In this document: in pieces, positions 5,401 through 29,394 of the stretch
How the letters are laid out: every line of letters begins with the position of its first letter
Position numbering within the stretch: position 1 is the stretch's first letter
From: Thermosulfurimonas dismutans
GTDB lineage: Bacteria > Desulfobacterota > Thermodesulfobacteria > Thermodesulfobacteriales > Thermodesulfobacteriaceae
Reading direction: 5' to 3'
Assembly: GCF_001652585.1 (NCBI RefSeq)
Contig: NZ_LWLG01000001.1
Coordinates: 90,001 to 122,000, forward strand
Length of the DNA stretch: 32,000 nt
Program-made: the position numbers and the translations under genes
The notes under the pieces: model-generated
What the model was told of the DNA's origin: nothing
What the model saw: only the letters and a program-made list of their open reading frames with translations
Database searches by the model: none

Positions 5401-6048
5401 ATGAAAGCCCTCAGGGAAGCGGCCAGAGATCTGGCCTACCTCCTGGATCGCGGTTATCCCGAAAGAGCTAGTCTCAAATTGATCGGGGATCGCTTCGGTC
5501 TCACCGCTGAAGAGAGGGAACTTCTCATCCGGGCCACCGTTCCCCGGCAAAAGGCCCTTCTCCGCCGGCAAAAGAAGGTGAGGGCCCGAGAGCTTAGAGG
5601 AGCCCGGGTAAGCGTTGACGGCTTCAATGTCTTGGCTACCCTAACACACGCCTTAAGAGGTTACCCCCTTGTGCTTGCCAGAGACGGTTTTATAAGAGAT
5701 GCCGTGCGAGCCGGGAAAAATTTGCGTCTTGAACCAGAACTACCCTCGCTCCTTGGACTCCTTGAAAAATTCTTTCGCCGGTTTCGTCCTGCTCATGTCG
5801 GTTTCTATTTCGATGCCCCCGTTTCTGGAAGTGGAAAGCTTGCGGCCAGGATCCGTATCTGGCTCAAAGAGCTACCCCTCCCGGGTGAGGCTCTAGCATT
5901 GCGCGACGCCGAAAGGCGGGTGCTCTCTGGAGAAATCGTCTGCACCGCGGACGGACCTCTCCTTGAGCGTGCGGATAAGGTCTTTGATCTTGCAGGCTTC
6001 ATTGTTCGGCGTTATCTGAGAAGCCCCCTCTTCAAACTCTTCAGTTAA
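5401..6048 (+). CDS. Hypothetical protein, DUF434-like N-terminus plus a PIN/NYN-like C-terminal domain
   Basis: 215-aa ORF. The N-terminal LREAARDLAYLLDRGYPERASLKLIGDRFGL resembles the DUF434 family as I remember it. The C-terminal half (VSVDGFNVL ... FYFDAPVSGSG ... VCTADGPLL) looks like a small nuclease-like alpha/beta fold. The family assignment is from memory and not searched. Confidence 0.55.
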   Translation: MKALREAARDLAYLLDRGYPERASLKLIGDRFGLTAEERELLIRATVPRQKALLRRQKKVRARELRGARVSVDGFNVLATLTHALRGYPLVLARDGFIRDAVRAGKNLRLEPELPSLLGLLEKFFRRFRPAHVGFYFDAPVSGSGKLAARIRIWLKELPLPGEALALRDAERRVLSGEIVCTADGPLLERADKVFDLAGFIVRRYLRSPLFKLFS

Positions 6049-7336
6049 CAGGCCCGGGACAAAAGGGATCGCGATCCCGAAAGGGATCAAGGCCGGAAGT
6101 GGCGATCACGGCCAGACATCCTCGACAAATAGCGTAGAGCCGACAGTCATAGCAGGCCTCTGGCCCCCGGCGGTATTTCTCGGACCTCTCCGAGTGATAG
6201 ATCTCCAAGAGATCGTTCTCAAAGATATTTCCCAAATAAGAAGAAAATTTCCGACAGGCATGGACCTCGCCATCCGGGAGAAGGGCCACAAAGTTGAAGG
6301 CCGCGCCACAACCAAAGCCGGTACAGCCCCCACAAAGTTCGTCTTTCTTGCGGTAAAGCAGATGGTTAAAAAGATTGTCCTTCAAATGGAGGTGAGGCAG
6401 GTTTGCACTCTCCTCAAGAAATTCCACCATCAAACGAAAAAAAGTGTCCCTTTCAGCCGGAGAAAGTTTTCGGCCCTCCCCGGTAAGGGCCAACCGATTA
6501 AATGTAAAGGTCTCCACTCGACCGGAAAGGCTTCTGGCCAGAGGCAGGACCTGATCGACGTTTCCGGCATGAAGGGTCAACATCACGCTCGCTGAGACCC
6601 CGGAATCCTTAAGCATTTCTAGGAAGGAAAGCGTTCGCCTAAAATGGCCTGGGCCTCGGATAAAGTCGTTGTAAGCTTCAAGGCCCTCAAGGCTTACCTG
6701 ATAGTAGGCCGGGGGTTCAATGGCAAGAATCCTCTCAAACCAGGCCTCCGGTACCGGATTCCCCAAAATGGCCAGGGTAAAATCTCTCTCCGAGGCCTCC
6801 CTATAGAGCTCGAAGAAGTCGGGATGCAGAAAGGGATTGCCTCCGGAAAACGAAATCTGGCCCTGGACCCGCATCTCTTCACAGAAATCATAGAAACGAT
6901 CCAGCACTCTCAAGGCCTCTTTAAGATTTAAGGGCCTGCGGTCGGTGCGGTCGTAACAATGACGGCAGGCAAGATCGCAGCGCTGGGTAAGGTGCCACTG
7001 AAGGGTAAAAATCTCCGACCGACGAAAATCCTCTCCCGGGAACCAGGCCTCTTTATAAGGACTTCCGGACCGAACAACCCGAGTAGGTTCTTTGAGGAGA
7101 TACCCCTTCTTAACGCCTAACCTGAGGACCCCCTTTAGGACGCTTAATGAGACCGCCTCTTTGTGGGCCACTTCTCTGAGATCCCTATCTTCAAGGACAA
7201 GTTTCAGGGCTAGAAGATCATAGGGAGATGGTTTTTCCCGGTGCTTTTGGTCGGTCTTGAGATCTTTCCAGAAGAGCTCAAAGTCCCCTCCCTGCCTCTT
7301 TAGTTCAAGGGTAGGGTTTAAATAATAGCCCTTCAC
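6041..7336 (-). CDS. Radical SAM/SPASM-domain peptide maturase with an N-terminal extension of about 110 aa (SbtM-like candidate)
   Basis: 431-aa ORF with a GTG start. The canonical CxxxCxxC is present at C120/C124/C127 (QRCDLACRHCY). The C-terminal SPASM-type Cys clusters are CGGCTGFGCGAAF..HACRKF and CYDCRLYAICRGC...FCPG. It lies 46 nt downstream of the small UGA-containing ORF. Confidence 0.85.
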   Translation of the reverse strand: MKGYYLNPTLELKRQGGDFELFWKDLKTDQKHREKPSPYDLLALKLVLEDRDLREVAHKEAVSLSVLKGVLRLGVKKGYLLKEPTRVVRSGSPYKEAWFPGEDFRRSEIFTLQWHLTQRCDLACRHCYDRTDRRPLNLKEALRVLDRFYDFCEEMRVQGQISFSGGNPFLHPDFFELYREASERDFTLAILGNPVPEAWFERILAIEPPAYYQVSLEGLEAYNDFIRGPGHFRRTLSFLEMLKDSGVSASVMLTLHAGNVDQVLPLARSLSGRVETFTFNRLALTGEGRKLSPAERDTFFRLMVEFLEESANLPHLHLKDNLFNHLLYRKKDELCGGCTGFGCGAAFNFVALLPDGEVHACRKFSSYLGNIFENDLLEIYHSERSEKYRRGPEACYDCRLYAICRGCLAVIATSGLDPFRDRDPFCPGPVN

Positions 7337-7353
7337 TTTAAGCTTATTCCCCA

Positions 7354-7369
7354 GGGCCTGACCAGGCCC
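7354..7369 (-). promoter_or_regulatory. Intercistronic hairpin GGGCCU-GGUC-AGGCCC between the small ORF and the radical SAM gene
   Basis: A 6-bp GC stem with a 4-nt loop, read on the minus strand 12 nt after the TGA at 7382..7384 and 18 nt before the GTG at 7336. No U-tract follows. It could be a partial terminator or RNA-stability element, as is common between RiPP precursor and enzyme genes. Confidence 0.35.
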
Positions 7370-7381
7370 TTAATCTTAACC

Positions 7382-7657
7382 TCAGCCACTTTTACCAGAA
7401 GGTTTGACAGGCATATGAGCTTCAGGCTTTTCTTCAGAGGCCTTCTCCGTAGCCTCTGGAGTAGCATTTTCGATGGTATTCTTTGAGGACTTTATGTCCA
7501 TATCCATTTGAGCGGCACCGCCGCCCTTCTTGGAACCTCAACCGCTACAGCCACTCTGAGAAAGGGCTCTGGCTGGAAGGCTCAAACCTCCACTCGCAGC
7601 CAAAAGGGCCGAAAGACTAACTCCCGTCAGCATTCTTTTGATTTTTTCTGTTTTCAT
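7382..7657 (-). CDS. Candidate selenocysteine-containing RiPP precursor peptide (91 aa with U40; 39 aa if the TGA terminates)
   Basis: My translation from the ATG at 7657 is MKTEKIKRMLTGVSLSALLAASGGLSLPARALSQSGCSG, then TGA (7540..7538), then GSKKGGGAAQMDMDIKSSKNTIENATPEATEKASEEKPEAHMPVKPSGKSG, then TGA (7384..7382). A GGAGAGAGGAG Shine-Dalgarno sequence sits immediately upstream. An in-frame stop lies 4 codons upstream of the ATG. The gene lies directly 5' of the radical SAM/SPASM gene on the same strand. The ORF track shows only the antisense ORF 7508..7708. Confidence 0.45.
7510..7526 (-). promoter_or_regulatory. bSECIS-like hairpin (17 nt, GGGCGGC-GGU-GCCGCUC) 11 nt 3' of the in-frame UGA
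   Basis: The minus strand reads UGA ggttccaagaa GGGCGGC GGT GCCGCTC. The stem has 5 GC pairs plus G.U and G-C extensions. The apical loop contains GGU. Both the size (17 nt) and the 11-nt spacing match the minimal E. coli fdhF SECIS geometry. Confidence 0.4.
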
Positions 7658-7691
7658 CTCCTCTCTCCTTCACAAAATTTCATATTTCTTA

Positions 7692-7720
7692 TTTATATCA
7701 TGCTATAAAATAAATAGCAA
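7692..7720 (-). promoter_or_regulatory. Sigma70-like promoter for the small ORF (-35 TTGCTA, 17-nt spacer, extended -10 TGATATAAA)
   Basis: The minus strand reads TTGCTA (7720..7715), tttattttatagcatga, TATAAA (7697..7692). This lies about 35 nt upstream of the ATG at 7657, within a very AT-rich stretch. Consensus match by eye only. Confidence 0.4.
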
Positions 7721-9857: not shown

Positions 9858-10835
9858 GTGGATCTTCTGCGTCCTAAGACTTTAAAGGAATATATCGGCC
9901 AGGAAGATATCAAACGGGAGCTTGAGATCTATCTTTCGGCGGCCAAGGCCCGTAATGAAGCCTTAGATCACGTGCTTCTTACCGGCTACCCCGGTTTGGG
10001 GAAGACCACCCTGGCCCAAGTTATCGCTCACGAGTTAGGAGTGAATTTCAAGATCACTTCTGGCGCCACCCTTGAAAGACCCGGGGATCTTGCAGCCATT
10101 CTTACCACTCTTGAAGAACGGGATATCCTCTTTATAGACGAGATCCATCGCCTTCCCCGGGCCTGTGAGGAGGTGCTCTATCCGGCCATCGAAGATTTCG
10201 TCCTAGATCTGGTGGTGGGGAAGGGACCTGGGGCTCGGGCCGTACGGTTAAAACTTCCCCGTTTTACTCTTATCGGCGCCACCACCCGCCCGGGATTGAT
10301 CTCCGCCCCTCTGCGCGACCGCTTCGGCATAGTATTCAAACTAGAATTCTACAGTGAGAAGGCCTTGGCCCGCATCATAGCCCGCTCAGCCGAGATTCTA
10401 GGCCTTCGAATCACCCCTGAAGGAGCCCAAGTCATCGCCTCCCGTTCCCGAGGCACCCCTCGGATTGCCAACCGCCTGCTCCGCCGAGTAAGGGATTATG
10501 CCGAGGTAAATGGTAGCCGAGAAATCTCTAAAGAGGTCGCCGAAAAAGCCCTTGCCTTAATGGATCTCGATCCCTTAGGCCTTTCCCCGCTTGACCGACG
10601 CATTCTCCTTACCATCCTCGAAAAATTCGACGGAGGTCCAGTGGGACTGGGAACTTTGGCCACCGCCCTCTGTGAAGACCCCCAGACCCTAGAGGACATC
10701 TATGAACCCTATCTCATCCGGTGCGGTCTCTTGCGCCGAACCCGCAAAGGTCGTATGCTCACGGAGCGAGCCTACATATATTTAAAACAGGTTTCACCGG
10801 AAATACCTCTTAACAATAACCTATGGGAGAACTGA
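9858..10835 (+). CDS. ruvB: Holliday junction branch migration DNA helicase RuvB
   Basis: 325 aa. It has [12 protein letters not shown], Walker [12 protein letters not shown], Walker [10 protein letters not shown], and the sensor/arginine motifs [13 protein letters not shown]. Confidence 0.95.
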
Positions 10836-21123: not shown

Positions 21124-21958
21124 AAGGCTAGGTCGTGGTCTTTCGGCCCTTCTCTCGGAAACGGAGGCTGAAGGTGAACTCCGTACGGTCTCAATTTCTG
21201 CCATCTTACCCTCTCCCTTCCAGCCTCGGCGAAACTTCTCCGAGGAATCCCTAGCAGAGCTTGCAGCCTCCATCAAAAGTCGGGGACTACTTCAGCCGCT
21301 CCTCGTACGAGAAATTGCCCCGGGGACCTACGAACTAGTAGCTGGGGAGCGACGCCTTAGGGCCGCTAAGATGGCCGGCCTTTCAGAAGTCCCGGTTTTG
21401 ATAAAACACTTCTCGGATGAGGAGGCCTTGAGTGTAGCCCTTATCGAAAACCTTCAGCGCGAGGATCTTAATCCTCTTGAGGAGGCCGAGGGATACCGGC
21501 GCCTTATAGACGAATTCGGTCTCTCCCAAGAAGAGATAGCCCGTCGGGTAGGCAAAGATCGCTCCACAGTGGCCAATGCCCTAAGGCTCCTCAAGCTTCC
21601 GGAAAAAGTAAAGGAAGATCTGCTTGAGGAAAGGCTTTCGGCTGGACACGCCCGAGCCCTTTTAGCCTTAGAAGATGAAGGGCTCATCCTCAAGGCTAGA
21701 GATCAGGTCCTGAAACGCAAACTTTCGGTAAGAGAAACCGAACGGCTGGTAAACAGATTAAAGGAAGGCCGGCCCCAAAAGAAAAAAGCCCTTCCGGATC
21801 CGGATCTTGAGGCCCTGGGACGAGAACTCGCCGAACTTTCAGGGGCTAAAGTAAAGGTCGAAGTAGTAAAAGGACGCCCTCGTTTCCGCTTCGATTTTGA
21901 AGACCTGCAATCTGCCGAAAGGTTCTTAAGTCTCCTGAGAAGACTATCTAGATGTTGA
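21101..21958 (+). CDS. parB: Chromosome partitioning protein ParB/Spo0J
   Basis: 285 aa. It has RGLSALL, the ParB box GERRLRAAKMAG, LIENLQREDLNPLEEA, and the HTH QEEIARRVGKDRSTVANALRLL. The GTG start overlaps parA by 23 nt. Confidence 0.92.
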   Translation: MPGKKKDRRLGRGLSALLSETEAEGELRTVSISAILPSPFQPRRNFSEESLAELAASIKSRGLLQPLLVREIAPGTYELVAGERRLRAAKMAGLSEVPVLIKHFSDEEALSVALIENLQREDLNPLEEAEGYRRLIDEFGLSQEEIARRVGKDRSTVANALRLLKLPEKVKEDLLEERLSAGHARALLALEDEGLILKARDQVLKRKLSVRETERLVNRLKEGRPQKKKALPDPDLEALGRELAELSGAKVKVEVVKGRPRFRFDFEDLQSAERFLSLLRRLSRC

Positions 21959-23335
21959 AAGGAGGCGAAATTTTATCTTCTGGTCCTCAAGATAGAATTC
22001 TCCCGGGCCAGAAATTTCGCTTTTGACCTCGTATTTATTTCTTCCAATAAAAACTCTTACCCCGGGGTAGACCTTCTCCAGTACCTGTAAGGTATAATTC
22101 TGATAAGATAGGAGTTCTTCTTCCTTTTGCTTGATTTTTTCTTGAAGATCAGCCTGTTCGAACATCTTCTCCCTAAAGACCGCTTGAATCTTCTGTAATA
22201 TCCGGAATTTTTCCGGGGTAAGTTTACCTTCCTTTTTGAGTTTAAGCCCCAGAAGCATGGCCTTGCGGAGCTTCTCCGTGGTCTCATCAAGAAGGAGCAG
22301 TTCCGCTTTAAGTTTTTCGATCTCTTCAAAAATTTCCGAAGGATGGCCCACCTTGATATAGGTTGGCATAAAAGATTCGTTGCCAACCACTTTAATCACC
22401 GCCCCTTCGCCGACCTCCACCTCCCCAGCGGCCAAAAGTCCTCGGCCCTCGATCACGGAAAGGTTCTTTCCTACTTTAACTCGGGCTTGAAGAATATAGT
22501 CTTTGACCGTTAGAGAGCCTTTCACTTTAACCGTAGCGTATTCAATGGCTTTGATAATAGCCTTTCCAGAGATCTCAACGAAGGTATTCTCACCATGAAT
22601 GAGACCCCCTACAGAAAGATCGCCGTCTACTTTGATCTCGGTCCCGTCTTCCACGCCACCGCCGATCTCCACGTCTCCTTCAGCTAGGACCTTGAAGCCC
22701 CGCTTGACTCCGCCAGTAACGACCAGTTTTTCCCCATAAAACCGGATATTTCCCGACTTCCAGTCCACATCCCCTTCAAGGGTATAGGTGGGAACCAAAT
22801 TTAGCTTCCCTTGTTTTTCGATCAGGCACCCGTCCCTTTCGGCGATAAGGATCTCGTTTTTTTCATCAGGACGAAGGCCTTCGCCGTAATTGAAAGAGAC
22901 ATCCTTTACCGGAGGCGGAGGGATAACCTCTCCCCAAATATTACAGCCCGGTTGTCCTGGCTTAGGAGGAATGTGCCTTATGATCGGAGTTCCGGCCTTA
23001 ACCGAAACCACCAGATTCATTTCTCGGAAATCAATACGATTCTTATCAACCTCCCTTGGACCATGGGAGAGGTCTACCAAAAGCTCCAGACGGCCATCCT
23101 CCCCAGGCGTAGGCGGTTTACCCCGGGCGACAACGATCTTGCCATTCTTTACTTCCGGCTTCTCTAAAATTCCCGAAAGCCCGAGATTGGAAAGTTCTTC
23201 CCTAATCTTTGCCCATTCCTCAGCCGAAGGTATGCTTGCACCCTCCAGGTAGGCCTCTAGCTCATCATTTGAGGCCCGAAGGAGATAATCTCCCAGGGGG
23301 TAACCTTTTTTCTTCAAAGCTTCTCTTATACCCAT
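21944..23335 (-). CDS. FapA-family (DUF342) protein
   Basis: 463 aa. The central region has beta-helix-like degenerate repeats (GDVEIGGGVEDGTEIKVDGDLSVGGLIHGENTFVEISGKAIIK...VKVKGSLTV...VKVGKNLSV...GEVEVGEGAVIKV). A coiled coil follows, then the C-terminal VRVFIG...YEV, as is typical of DUF342/FapA. Confidence 0.7.
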   Translation of the reverse strand: MGIREALKKKGYPLGDYLLRASNDELEAYLEGASIPSAEEWAKIREELSNLGLSGILEKPEVKNGKIVVARGKPPTPGEDGRLELLVDLSHGPREVDKNRIDFREMNLVVSVKAGTPIIRHIPPKPGQPGCNIWGEVIPPPPVKDVSFNYGEGLRPDEKNEILIAERDGCLIEKQGKLNLVPTYTLEGDVDWKSGNIRFYGEKLVVTGGVKRGFKVLAEGDVEIGGGVEDGTEIKVDGDLSVGGLIHGENTFVEISGKAIIKAIEYATVKVKGSLTVKDYILQARVKVGKNLSVIEGRGLLAAGEVEVGEGAVIKVVGNESFMPTYIKVGHPSEIFEEIEKLKAELLLLDETTEKLRKAMLLGLKLKKEGKLTPEKFRILQKIQAVFREKMFEQADLQEKIKQKEEELLSYQNYTLQVLEKVYPGVRVFIGRNKYEVKSEISGPGEFYLEDQKIKFRLLSTSR

Positions 23336-27489: not shown

Positions 27490-29394
27490 TCAACGCCGGA
27501 AAAGGGCCCAAAAGAGCGCCAAGATAAAAAGTAGAAACGAGGCCCCTAAAAAAGAAGAAAAACTAAGTGGCAGATAGGGCAGAAGTTCTGGAGCGGTGAC
27601 CGCCAGAAAGGAAGGCACCGAAAAATAGAGCAGAAAAAGAAGGATCTCTCCCACAACAAACACCTTGAGAAAGGTAGATAGTTGTTTTCGGAAAAGTCTT
27701 TTGGCCTCGAGTCTCTTCTTCTCCTGCTCTAAAGTTTCGATCAAACTGTGAATATTGGCAGCCTCTTTTAGAAGACTGCGGAATTCTTTGATCGGATCCT
27801 TGCCGAGGCGCTGCTCTAAGCGAAGCAAACGGTTACCGACCTCGCGTAATCTCTGATTGAACACGGATTCTCCATACTTATAGGGGTAGCTAGACCAATA
27901 TCTCTTGAGTGCATGATATCGAGAAAAAAATTCCGATATCCGCTCTCGGATCTCCCGAATTTTCCGATAAGTGTATCCCTGAATCTCCAGACTCAATTCC
28001 ATAGCCTCAAGGGCCGCCTTCTCAAGTTCGAAAAAGCAACCTTTATATATTTTCTCCCGAAAATTACTAAGCTGATCCTCAAGAGCAGAGAGTTCTTCTT
28101 CGGAAAGGAGTTGTTTCAGGCGATGAAGGCCATCTTCGGCCTTCCGGAGTGTCGTTAAAGCCTCGGCCTGTTTCTTCTCTATTCGGGAAAGCAATTCCTT
28201 TTCTAGCTCTTTACCAAAAAGCAAAAAGGCCGGCTCAAGGAACGCCAGAGTAAAAATCACCGGATGGCCAAGCAAGGGAGACAAGCGAAAAAGATCACGT
28301 TCGGTCCCTCCGAGATAAAAGGAAACCAAAAGTTTATGATAGGTAGCGGGCACCGCCGAATGGTCCTTCTTTAAGGCTTCGGCATAAAAACGCTCAGCAG
28401 AGACAAAATCTTTCTGCATCTCATAGATACGAGCTTTTAAGAGCAAAATGGAGGTCTGGACCAGCGGTGGGAGGTTTTCGGTCTTCACCTCTTCGAAATA
28501 GTAAAGGGCCCGTTCATAATCTTCCTGTAAGATCGCCAGATGACACAGTCCCAATCCTACCCGATAATCAGAAGGATCACCTGCGGCCAAGAACCTCTTT
28601 TCAGACTCCTTAAGGTTCCCGGTGTGAAGATTTTCCAAGGCTATGAGAAGATGACCTCCTTTGGTGGGAATCTCTTTCCCCAAACTGACCTGAGAAAAAT
28701 GGGACCATTCCGGGACTTTGTAGTAAAGGATGCGCAGGAAGGCCGGCTGTAAGTAAAAGTATCGAGCGTAGAGTCCTTGAAGCTCCTTAGCGAAAAGTTC
28801 GCCTTTCAAAAGCCTTTGGGTGAGACTCTGCCCGAGGTCTTTCAAAGTCTGATAAAGATAGGCCTTTAAGGCCTTCCCGCTAACCATCTCTTTGAGTCCG
28901 GGGCAATCCGCATTACGATGCCAGGGCAGACCACAATAGAAACAAGGTCCCTTCTGCCCAACCCAAAGGAGATCTCTGGTTCTGAATAGGACCTCGGGAT
29001 CAGCGGTTGTAGGCAAAATAACTTCGAGAAGATTTTGCCATGGTTTAATGGTTAACAAAAAGCCAAGTTTTTTAGAAGCCCTCTCTAAGGCTTCCTTCAT
29101 GGAAGGACTTACATAAAGCTTCCCGGGTCTAAGCCAGGAAACATTGGCCTTTTCCGGAAGGAGGTTAAAGGGAAGAGGAGCTTCTCCAAGCTCCCTGCTA
29201 AAAGAGGACCTCAATTCCGAAAAGGTCTTATTCAGGGTGGCCAGATGCTCAGGGGCAAAATGAAAGAAATCACCTTCACGTCTCAGGTAGGCGGAGAGGT
29301 GTTTCAAGACCAGCGCTCGAAAATCGCGTTCTCTGCCGGGGAAGAGATAAGCCGCCAGCCTTTCATGGAAGAAAAAGCGCAATCTCTCATTCAC
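27490..29394 (-). CDS. Hypothetical 634-aa protein: N-terminal domain with a CCHC zinc knuckle, TPR-like region, long coiled coil, C-terminal double transmembrane hairpin
   Basis: A long ORF with coding-like composition. It has an exact C-x2-C-x4-H-x4-C motif (CFYCGLPWHRNADC, residues 151-164). TPR-like helices are present (YERALYYFEEV..., FVSAERFYAEALKKD). Heptad-rich segments span about residues 400-560. The last ~55 residues form two hydrophobic helices. Its start overlaps the lspA stop by 4 nt. No family recognised. Confidence 0.7.
   Translation of the reverse strand: MNERLRFFFHERLAAYLFPGRERDFRALVLKHLSAYLRREGDFFHFAPEHLATLNKTFSELRSSFSRELGEAPLPFNLLPEKANVSWLRPGKLYVSPSMKEALERASKKLGFLLTIKPWQNLLEVILPTTADPEVLFRTRDLLWVGQKGPCFYCGLPWHRNADCPGLKEMVSGKALKAYLYQTLKDLGQSLTQRLLKGELFAKELQGLYARYFYLQPAFLRILYYKVPEWSHFSQVSLGKEIPTKGGHLLIALENLHTGNLKESEKRFLAAGDPSDYRVGLGLCHLAILQEDYERALYYFEEVKTENLPPLVQTSILLLKARIYEMQKDFVSAERFYAEALKKDHSAVPATYHKLLVSFYLGGTERDLFRLSPLLGHPVIFTLAFLEPAFLLFGKELEKELLSRIEKKQAEALTTLRKAEDGLHRLKQLLSEEELSALEDQLSNFREKIYKGCFFELEKAALEAMELSLEIQGYTYRKIREIRERISEFFSRYHALKRYWSSYPYKYGESVFNQRLREVGNRLLRLEQRLGKDPIKEFRSLLKEAANIHSLIETLEQEKKRLEAKRLFRKQLSTFLKVFVVGEILLFLLYFSVPSFLAVTAPELLPYLPLSFSSFLGASFLLFILALFWALFRR

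Follow-up and report, generated by a model that had tools for sequence, protein, structure and literature searches.

A probable two-selenocysteine precursor and its radical SAM maturase in the sbtA-sbtM locus of Thermosulfurimonas dismutans

The window analysed here is a stretch of 32,000 nucleotides of Thermosulfurimonas dismutans DNA (NCBI RefSeq assembly GCF_001652585.1, contig NZ_LWLG01000001.1, positions 90,001 to 122,000 of the forward strand), whose minus strand carries a small precursor gene, sbtA, followed directly by sbtM, the gene of a radical S-adenosylmethionine (SAM)/SPASM enzyme. The two genes very probably form an operon for a ribosomally synthesised and post-translationally modified peptide (RiPP), in which a 93-residue precursor would carry selenocysteine (Sec, U) at both of its in-frame UGA codons and SbtM would form seleno(thio)oxazoles on it. 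The features of the locus are given below in window coordinates, with the evidence for each in brackets; SECIS denotes a selenocysteine insertion sequence.

7376..7657, minus strand: sbtA precursor gene, proposed full model (sequence, TIGR04081 score, alignment with relatives)
7658..7668, minus strand: Shine-Dalgarno-like GGAGAGAGGAG directly 5' of the sbtA ATG (sequence)
7568..7657, minus strand: SbtA leader, residues 1-30 (TIGR04081 alignment, residues 1-28)
7547..7549, minus strand: Cys37 codon (TGT) in an SG-C-SG unit (sequence, alignment)
7538..7540, minus strand: UGA codon 40, read as Sec, SG-U-G (downstream conservation of frame and sequence, synonymous changes)
7510..7526, minus strand: SECIS-like hairpin 1, GGGCGGC-GGU-GCCGCUC, 7 bp (fold, covariance model R1)
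7382..7384, minus strand: UGA codon 92 in KSG-U-G-stop, probable second Sec (motif identity with U40, relatives, homologue counts)
7376..7381, minus strand: Gly93 codon (GGT) and proposed true stop TAA (sequence)
7353..7370, minus strand: SECIS-like hairpin 2, AGGGCCU-GGUC-AGGCCCU, 7 bp, in the sbtA-sbtM spacer (fold, position, relatives)
6041..7336, minus strand: sbtM, radical SAM/SPASM thio(seleno)oxazole maturase, 431 aa, GTG start (TIGR04082, Pfam, NCBI)
7091..7336, minus strand: SbtM residues 1-82, RiPP recognition element (RRE)-like domain (AlphaFold2 model, Foldseek)
6956..6979, minus strand: CxxxCxxC motif with C120, C124 and C127, for the SAM-binding 4Fe-4S cluster (invariant in a 22-sequence alignment)
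6059..6325, minus strand: SPASM region with C338, C343, C361, C395, C398, C404, C407 and C426, for the auxiliary clusters (Pfam, invariant columns)

The sbtA frame opens at an ATG (7657..7655) and runs through 39 codons, MKTEKIKRMLTGVSLSALLAASGGLSLPARALSQSGCSG, to an in-frame TGA (7540..7538), after which 51 further codons stay open up to the next TGA (7384..7382). All of this, like the 431-aa radical SAM/SPASM open reading frame (ORF) downstream, had been described in an initial annotation of the DNA and is present in the sequence. The same annotation closed the small ORF at 7384..7382, 46 nt before the maturase. That end does not hold: the second TGA is itself part of an SG-U-G motif, with K-S-G before it and GGT (Gly) and TAA (7378..7376) after it, and this TAA, 39 nt from the GTG of sbtM on the same strand, is the likely end of the gene. 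The proposed sbtA has 93 codons (M1...C37...U40...U92-G93) and a TAA stop. Site 1 reads C-S-G-UGA-GGT; both sites are SG-U-G, and the four bases that follow the UGA are identical (UGAGGUU). sbtA and sbtM stand in one reading frame, with two TAA codons and hairpin 2 between them (7376..7384; 7334..7336, minus strand), and a terminator scan of the window predicted neither an intrinsic terminator nor a T-run in this interval. Of the promoter proposed for the operon, the hexamers TTGCTA (7720..7715) and TATAAA (7697..7692) and the 17-nt spacer are present upstream of sbtA, but the promoter scan did not accept the site, as the second hexamer has no T at position 6.

The small ORF had been taken to be unannotated. 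In GenBank, however, the region is split on this strand into TDIS_0110 (39 aa) and TDIS_0109 (41 aa, start Met51), each a "hypothetical protein", and the first of these is precisely the truncation to 39 aa that gene callers were expected to make. An exact look-up of public records returned only these 39- and 41-aa fragments of SbtA, and a homology search with full-length SbtA (U as C) gave no match. The open 51-codon frame is weak evidence in itself, because its probability by chance is about 0.09. TGA also ends 11 of the 25 window ORFs checked, sbtM included, and is thus an ordinary stop here, so that an in-frame UGA needs a special decoding signal. What decides in favour of a real gene is conservation in relatives, an exchange between Cys and Sec, and hairpins tied to the UGA codons.

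Both products match curated models. With U scored as C, SbtA reaches 31.9 bits against the NCBIfam hidden Markov model (HMM) TIGR04081 for thio(seleno)oxazole RiPP precursors of the SbtA family (cut-off 30.5), its residues 1-28 aligning to all 27 profile positions. SbtM reaches 581.1 bits against TIGR04082, the model of the thio(seleno)oxazole-forming radical SAM maturase SbtM (cut-off 350; next family 175 bits), contains the Pfam domains Radical_SAM (PF04055) and SPASM (PF13186), and is 100% identical to the NCBI entry "SbtM [Thermosulfurimonas dismutans]". The pairing of a Sec-containing RiPP precursor with an SbtM-type maturase, already put forward by the initial annotation, is borne out by these scores. 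Where that annotation wavered between a member of the family and a related, uncharacterised system, plain membership is favoured because both NCBIfam models are passed and NCBI names the enzyme SbtM, and a separate system is disfavoured. As judged from sequence, the locus is an ordinary, mis-annotated member of the described SbtA/SbtM family. Two supposed oddities of the peptide fall away as well. The leader, with its basic N-terminus, hydrophobic stretch and A-R-A before L31, had been considered foreign to the family, but it is exactly what the 27-position TIGR04081 describes; it is the family-defining region and resembles a Sec-type signal peptide. The long tail after U40 had been judged in the same way, but long, low-complexity cores with several Sec are the rule among the 74 homologues described below.

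The core of SbtA holds three units, SG-C37-SG, SG-U40-GS and KSG-U92-G, which are of the same kinds as those of homologues and look like repeated Gly-Sec/Cys modification sites. The first two had been read together as a CxxU redox motif. This is unlikely and was rejected: T. marina and the locus L082 of a metagenome-assembled genome have a UGA in the Cys column (QSGUSGUG), giving UxxU, and such units recur through the core. Its middle part (7430..7480, minus strand) bears repeats of the E-N-A-T type, which read ENATPEATEKA here and ENATKNATENATENAT in T. marina, and the length of this region differs among genomes (T. dismutans; L081, L082).

SbtM is a short form of its family. The TIGR04082 match covers profile positions 107-516 of 516 and leaves the N-terminal extension uncovered; in most homologues (~520-540 aa) this extension adds about 100 residues and holds an L-x-D-L-A-R-x-E motif. 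The short form, 427-431 aa, occurs only in the Thermosulfurimonas/Caldimicrobium/Thermodesulfatator clade, where six relatives are also of this length, and in-frame TAA codons upstream of the GTG at 7336 exclude a longer ORF. It aligns end to end with the long forms at 48-53% identity, and C120, C124 and C127 and the eight C-terminal cysteines are invariant in the 22-sequence alignment. Since the curated cut-off is far exceeded, the missing extension is best regarded as a clade variant that does not disqualify the enzyme. In the AlphaFold2 model (pLDDT 92, pTM 0.90), residues 1-82 form four β-strands followed by three helices, and Foldseek returns full-length matches to SuiB in complex with its precursor peptide (E 1.5e-16), SkfB, CteB, PqqE and anSME. 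As in other RiPP maturases, a recognition domain, a radical SAM barrel and a SPASM domain are thus all predicted to be retained in the short SbtM.

The closest SbtM homologues are those of T. marina (63% identity), L082 (65%) and loci L001-L004 (50-63%), and their contigs have one gene order in common: ruvB-ruvA-ruvC-yebC, sbtA-sbtM, and beyond these a DUF434/DUF5616 gene in convergent orientation and genes of the aconitase family. The precursors of T. marina, L082, L001, L002 and L003 share with T. dismutans the leader, the SG-U-G motif, a (K/R)KGGG block and a terminal GKSGU[GA]-stop:

T. marina: MKEKELRKLLAGLSLSALLAGGGLAAAPVLAQSGUSGUGSKKGGGPALMETQPAENATKNATENATENATEVPRAEKPQGKSGUG-stop
L082: ...GQSGUSGUGSRKGGGAAQMEK...KPAGKSGUA-stop
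L001: ...GESAUAQKAGGGAAQKESPQKPAGKSGUA-stop
L002: ...QQGSSGUGGTPKKGGGPAKK...KPKGKSGUG-stop

A comparison with related genomes and a folding of the RNA downstream of the TGA had been proposed as checks, and both speak for decoding. The frame after the first UGA is open in every close-relative genome compared, and the block that follows, GSKKGGGAAQM in T. dismutans, is kept as G-S-(K/R)-K-G-G-G-(A/P)-A-(Q/L)-M, and most of the codon differences within it leave the amino acid unchanged (in 11 codons, 3-4 synonymous and 1-2 non-synonymous). Further on, the sbtA genes of close relatives end in GKSG-UGA, one Gly or Ala codon, and TAA or TAG. The Cys37 (TGT) column is UGA in T. marina (L081) and in L082 (QSGCSGUG against QSGUSGUG), and a column that alternates between Cys and Sec is the classical mark of a Sec codon. 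The column records a recent Sec/Cys exchange at a modification site.

At each site the UGA and the 48 nt after it were folded. Hairpin 1, a GC-rich 7-bp stem 11 nt after UGA40, has a folding energy of -15.4 kcal/mol (z -2.1), and hairpin 2, likewise GC-rich, one of -17.4 kcal/mol (z -2.25); in both, the first paired base is position 15, which leaves an 11-nt spacer from the UGA. A spacer of 11 nt and a loop containing GGU are the arrangement of the Escherichia coli fdhF SECIS. Hairpin 1 overlaps the codons for KGGGAAQ. A covariance model, R1, was built from 103 SECIS elements of distant sbtA genes, with the window and the close relatives left out; its top match over the 64 kb searched is the window segment 7543..7508 (19.7 bits, E ~6e-4), the next reaching 13.1 bits. 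This second match (10247..10283, minus strand, E ~0.06) is antisense to ruvB and is probably due to chance, because there is no UGA at the UGA position of the model. Rfam SECIS families gave no match in the window, either at gathering thresholds or at E ≤ 10. Hairpin 2 shares the structure and position of the other elements, without the GUGCAGGUGGCAC-type sequence of those in coding regions. Relatives have terminal hairpins in the same place with other stems, GCCCCG...CGGGGC in T. marina, GGCCCU...GGGGCC in L082 and UUAAGGCCU...AGGCCUUAA in L001, and such differing stems at one place fit a conserved structure.

The family as a whole was surveyed with a leader HMM made from 17 precursors, used in a six-frame search (TGA as U) of 83 fetched sbtM loci and the window. 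It gave 79 hits and 74 non-redundant precursors, one adjoining nearly every sbtM; the SbtA of the window reaches 35.9 bits (E 4e-9). All 74 homologues have a signal-peptide-like leader, with xLKKxLAGLxxAGL as its conserved motif. Sec is present in 66 of the 74 (two in 23, three in 29, four or five in 11), and eight are all-Cys; two or three Sec (52 precursors) are the norm. The system occurs here in Thermodesulfobacteria, Nitrospirota/Thermodesulfovibrionales and many Desulfobacterota.

The survey also ties the hairpins to UGA rather than to the peptide motif. A hairpin of at least five stacked pairs follows 89% of 183 accepted UGA sites and 31% of 26 control sites, in which the same peptide motif carries a Cys codon, with mean folding energies of -13.6 and -7.6 kcal/mol, respectively. 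Stems begin at positions 14-19 in 133 of 162 UGA sites and are scattered at Cys-codon sites. Where a UGA site has such a hairpin, the loop contains G in 98% and GU in 70%, the commonest being AGGUG, AGGUA, GGU and GUU. In the alignment of the 103 distant elements, all six stem pairs show changes on both sides. The all-Cys precursors lack UGA-linked hairpins and serve as a natural control; they include L017, L018, L022, L023, L038 and a second copy in L006, and that of L023 has repeated K-T-S-C-S-G units.

Further traits of these precursors were recorded. A peptide G-A-G-G-T/S recurs after each Sec in loci L005-L080 and is the translation of the SECIS hairpin GGUGCAGGUGGCACC; RNA structure, rather than peptide function, may shape much of the low-complexity core. 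In 27 of the 74 leaders, though not in that of T. dismutans, the end is a lipobox-like L-x-[GAS]-C. This Cys may serve as a first site of modification and not of lipidation, because its column is UGA in L041 (Olavius symbiont Delta 4; SbtA residue 29, TLSAUATG). Some genomes have two sbtA paralogues near one sbtM (L003 3457..4000, L006, L016), an example being Caldimicrobium, with peptides of 90 and 60 aa.

That the first UGA is a genuine stop is very improbable. The substrate would then be a 39-residue peptide with Cys37, and the 41-codon TDIS_0109 would stand apart or go untranslated. In favour of this, the GenBank entries are precisely these two fragments, TGA often serves as a stop in T. 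dismutans, and all-Cys SbtA peptides exist elsewhere (L017, L023, L038). But past the UGA synonymous drift leaves the frame, the block GSKKGGGAAQM and the terminal motif intact, the hairpin goes with the UGA and is largely missing at Cys-codon sites, column 37 shows the Cys/Sec exchange, and 66 of the 74 homologues have the same read-through architecture. There is equally little probability in a distinct, uncharacterised Sec-peptide system that merely resembles SbtA/SbtM. The absence of the first ~106 SbtM profile positions and the marginal peptide score would agree with it; against it stand the two curated cut-offs passed, the end-to-end alignment of the short enzyme with the long forms, and a leader, motif, SECIS type and C-terminus in common with homologues across phyla.

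A better case can be made for one Sec only, with U40 inserted, the UGA at 7384..7382 as true stop of a 91-residue product, and hairpin 2 as an mRNA stabiliser or attenuator, but this too is unlikely. The public T. marina call (L081 2719..2970, 83 aa) reads through two UGAs and stops at the third, equivalent to the terminal one here; R1 misses hairpin 2; and in L002 a U-rich tract comes after the corresponding hairpin, as in a terminator. In the window, however, the spacer is free of T-runs, hairpin 2 matches site 1 in its 11-nt spacing and GGU(C) loop, and KSG-U-[GSA] matches the internal sites. For the homologues, the true sbtM stop codons of the same loci serve as the comparison set. After the last sbtA UGA exactly one codon and then a stop follow in 28 of 66 (2.7% after sbtM stops), and the next in-frame stop lies within five codons in 54 of 66 (15%). 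Hairpins that have at least 5 bp and begin at positions 13-20 follow 71% of terminal and 77% of internal UGAs, but 14% of sbtM stop codons and 7% of sbtM TGA stops. The codon after the UGA is Ser or Gly in 51 of the 62 UGA sites with at least one codon before a nearby stop, a constraint not expected of a true stop, which makes translation of the terminal UGA very probable. In T. dismutans this UGA (7384..7382) is thus probably a second Sec codon, which gives SbtA two Sec rather than one. This suggests that the T. marina model should gain a final Sec-Gly, to 85 aa, and the same end may be missing from many public SbtA models.

Several observations weigh against the two-Sec operon nevertheless. 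Apart from the T. marina call, the SbtA score exceeds its cut-off by only 1.4 bits, and the fold z-scores of both hairpins (~-2.1 and -2.25) are modest. R1 does not recover hairpin 2 at E ≤ 10 in the 64 kb searched, so that fold, position and comparison with relatives are its whole support, and the 98% pairing in the 103-element alignment is partly circular, as the set was chosen for predicted hairpins. In addition, none of selA, selB, selD and tRNA-Sec lies within the 32-kb window, and a literature search on Thermosulfurimonas with sel genes gave nothing specific. T. dismutans TDIS_RS01570 is used in the literature as a Sec-containing, SECIS-bearing representative of another selenoprotein family, MccSep (PMC13510729, 2026), which implies a working Sec system in the organism. 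Sec insertion in T. dismutans is inferred, as is the reading of the terminal UGA.

In the two-Sec operon, transcription would begin in the AT-rich upstream region and continue through sbtA into sbtM. The ribosome would insert Sec at UGA40 and UGA92 by means of the two hairpins, the first within the coding sequence and the second in the sbtA-sbtM spacer, each with GGU in its loop; SelB, tRNA-Sec, SelA and SelD would be required. The resulting precursor would combine the conserved signal-peptide-like leader with a low-complexity core of three modification units. The N-terminal RRE-like domain of SbtM would bind this precursor, and radical SAM chemistry would abstract the β-hydrogens of Sec or Cys, so that each Gly-Sec/Cys unit closes to a 5-seleno(thio)oxazole with a change of -4 Da per site. 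This chemistry is assigned to the T. dismutans enzyme by homology with another family member, for which it was demonstrated in vitro (PMC9204691). Any processing and export would fall to general machinery, because no other gene recurs near sbtAM: across the 83 loci no gene family besides sbtA and sbtM is recurrent, and there is no conserved transporter or protease gene. The leader would presumably direct export via the general Sec pathway.

More tentatively, and by analogy, this leader might have two functions, being recognised by SbtM and acting as a signal peptide with cleavage after A-R-A, so that a mature poly-seleno/thio-oxazole peptide would act outside the cytoplasm, metal-binding or redox-active, as a radical SAM and selenium counterpart of the bufferins. 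The absence of a conserved transporter or protease gene and the signal-peptide-like leader of all 74 homologues would fit such a role, which is nonetheless the less probable outcome.

Next to the pair, a DUF434/DUF5616 gene (5401..6048, plus strand) converges on sbtM with a 3' overlap of 8 nt (6041..6048). The arrangement is kept in T. marina and L082 and not in distant loci; as the gene adjoins sbtAM in the closest relatives only, it was rejected as a component of the system and is probably a mere neighbour. Elsewhere in the window, two long ORFs, 21944..23335 (minus strand, 463 aa) and 27490..29394 (minus strand, 634 aa), have no NCBIfam match at E ≤ 1e-5.

The family and the name SbtM were already known, and the locus is no new kind of system; what is added is the gene model and the family-wide statistics. 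The corrected model replaces two GenBank hypothetical proteins with one 93-codon gene that has two putative Sec sites and one Cys site. Across the family, the final UGA, a single codon ahead of the stop, is very probably decoded by means of a SECIS outside the coding sequence. With its compact thermophile enzyme and three-site core, the T. dismutans pair would be a convenient one in which to look for the natural product and its function.

The SbtA/SbtM system was reportedly predicted by Haft and Basu in 2011. SbtM has been characterised in vitro by the Bandarian laboratory and makes a thio(seleno)oxazole from Gly-Cys/Sec, with a 4-Da loss, absorbance at 304 nm and transfer of the β-hydrogen to 5'-deoxyadenosine; SbtA has at least two Sec, in a G-U-G context (PMC9204691). 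The T. dismutans locus agrees with this description in that the precursor gene immediately precedes that of the radical SAM/SPASM maturase, two genes make up the system, with neither a transporter nor a protease of its own, and Sec stands in Gly-Sec-Gly with a SECIS-like hairpin just downstream and, if the terminal UGA is decoded, more than once per peptide. It differs in the short enzyme (431 aa against ~520-540 aa), in the motif SG-U-G instead of the GG-U-G quoted for SbtA (PMC9204691), and in having Cys at one site where close relatives have Sec. T. dismutans, a thermophilic sulfur disproportionator, also falls outside the range of "Geobacter and Desulfobacteria" given there, and the distribution of SbtA/SbtM found here is altogether wider than that range (PMC9204691).

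The bufferins (BufA, with BufB, an MNIO enzyme, and BufC) are signal-peptide-bearing peptides in which Cys is converted to 5-thiooxazole and which bind copper in the periplasm (PMC11626156). SbtA resembles them in its long precursor, its N-terminal leader of Sec signal-peptide type, the lack of a dedicated exporter and a 5-thiooxazole-type heterocycle from Cys. The bufferin heterocycle, however, is made by a multinuclear non-haem iron enzyme (MNIO, DUF692) with a DUF2063 partner, and SbtM is a radical SAM enzyme; no MNIO/DUF2063 pair is the partner of sbtA, as SbtM is the only conserved neighbour in the 83 loci. Bufferins also contain no selenium and are small folded proteins with disulfides, in contrast to the low-complexity core of SbtA. 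The likeness thus appears to be functional only, and it suggests a periplasmic metal-binding role by analogy. Among radical SAM enzymes, the predicted fold of SbtM corresponds over its full length to those of SuiB, CteB and SkfB, with an N-terminal recognition domain, a radical SAM barrel and a SPASM domain, but identity is 16-18% and the products of these enzymes are Lys-Trp or thioether cross-links, not an oxazole. With anSMEcpe, SbtM shares the radical SAM/SPASM fold (Foldseek E 1.6e-11), and anSMEcpe oxidises the Cys β-carbon to a thioaldehyde-type intermediate, as proposed for the first step of SbtM (PMC9204691). By contrast, anSMEcpe lacks a recognition domain, acts on a folded sulfatase and yields formylglycine rather than a heterocycle.

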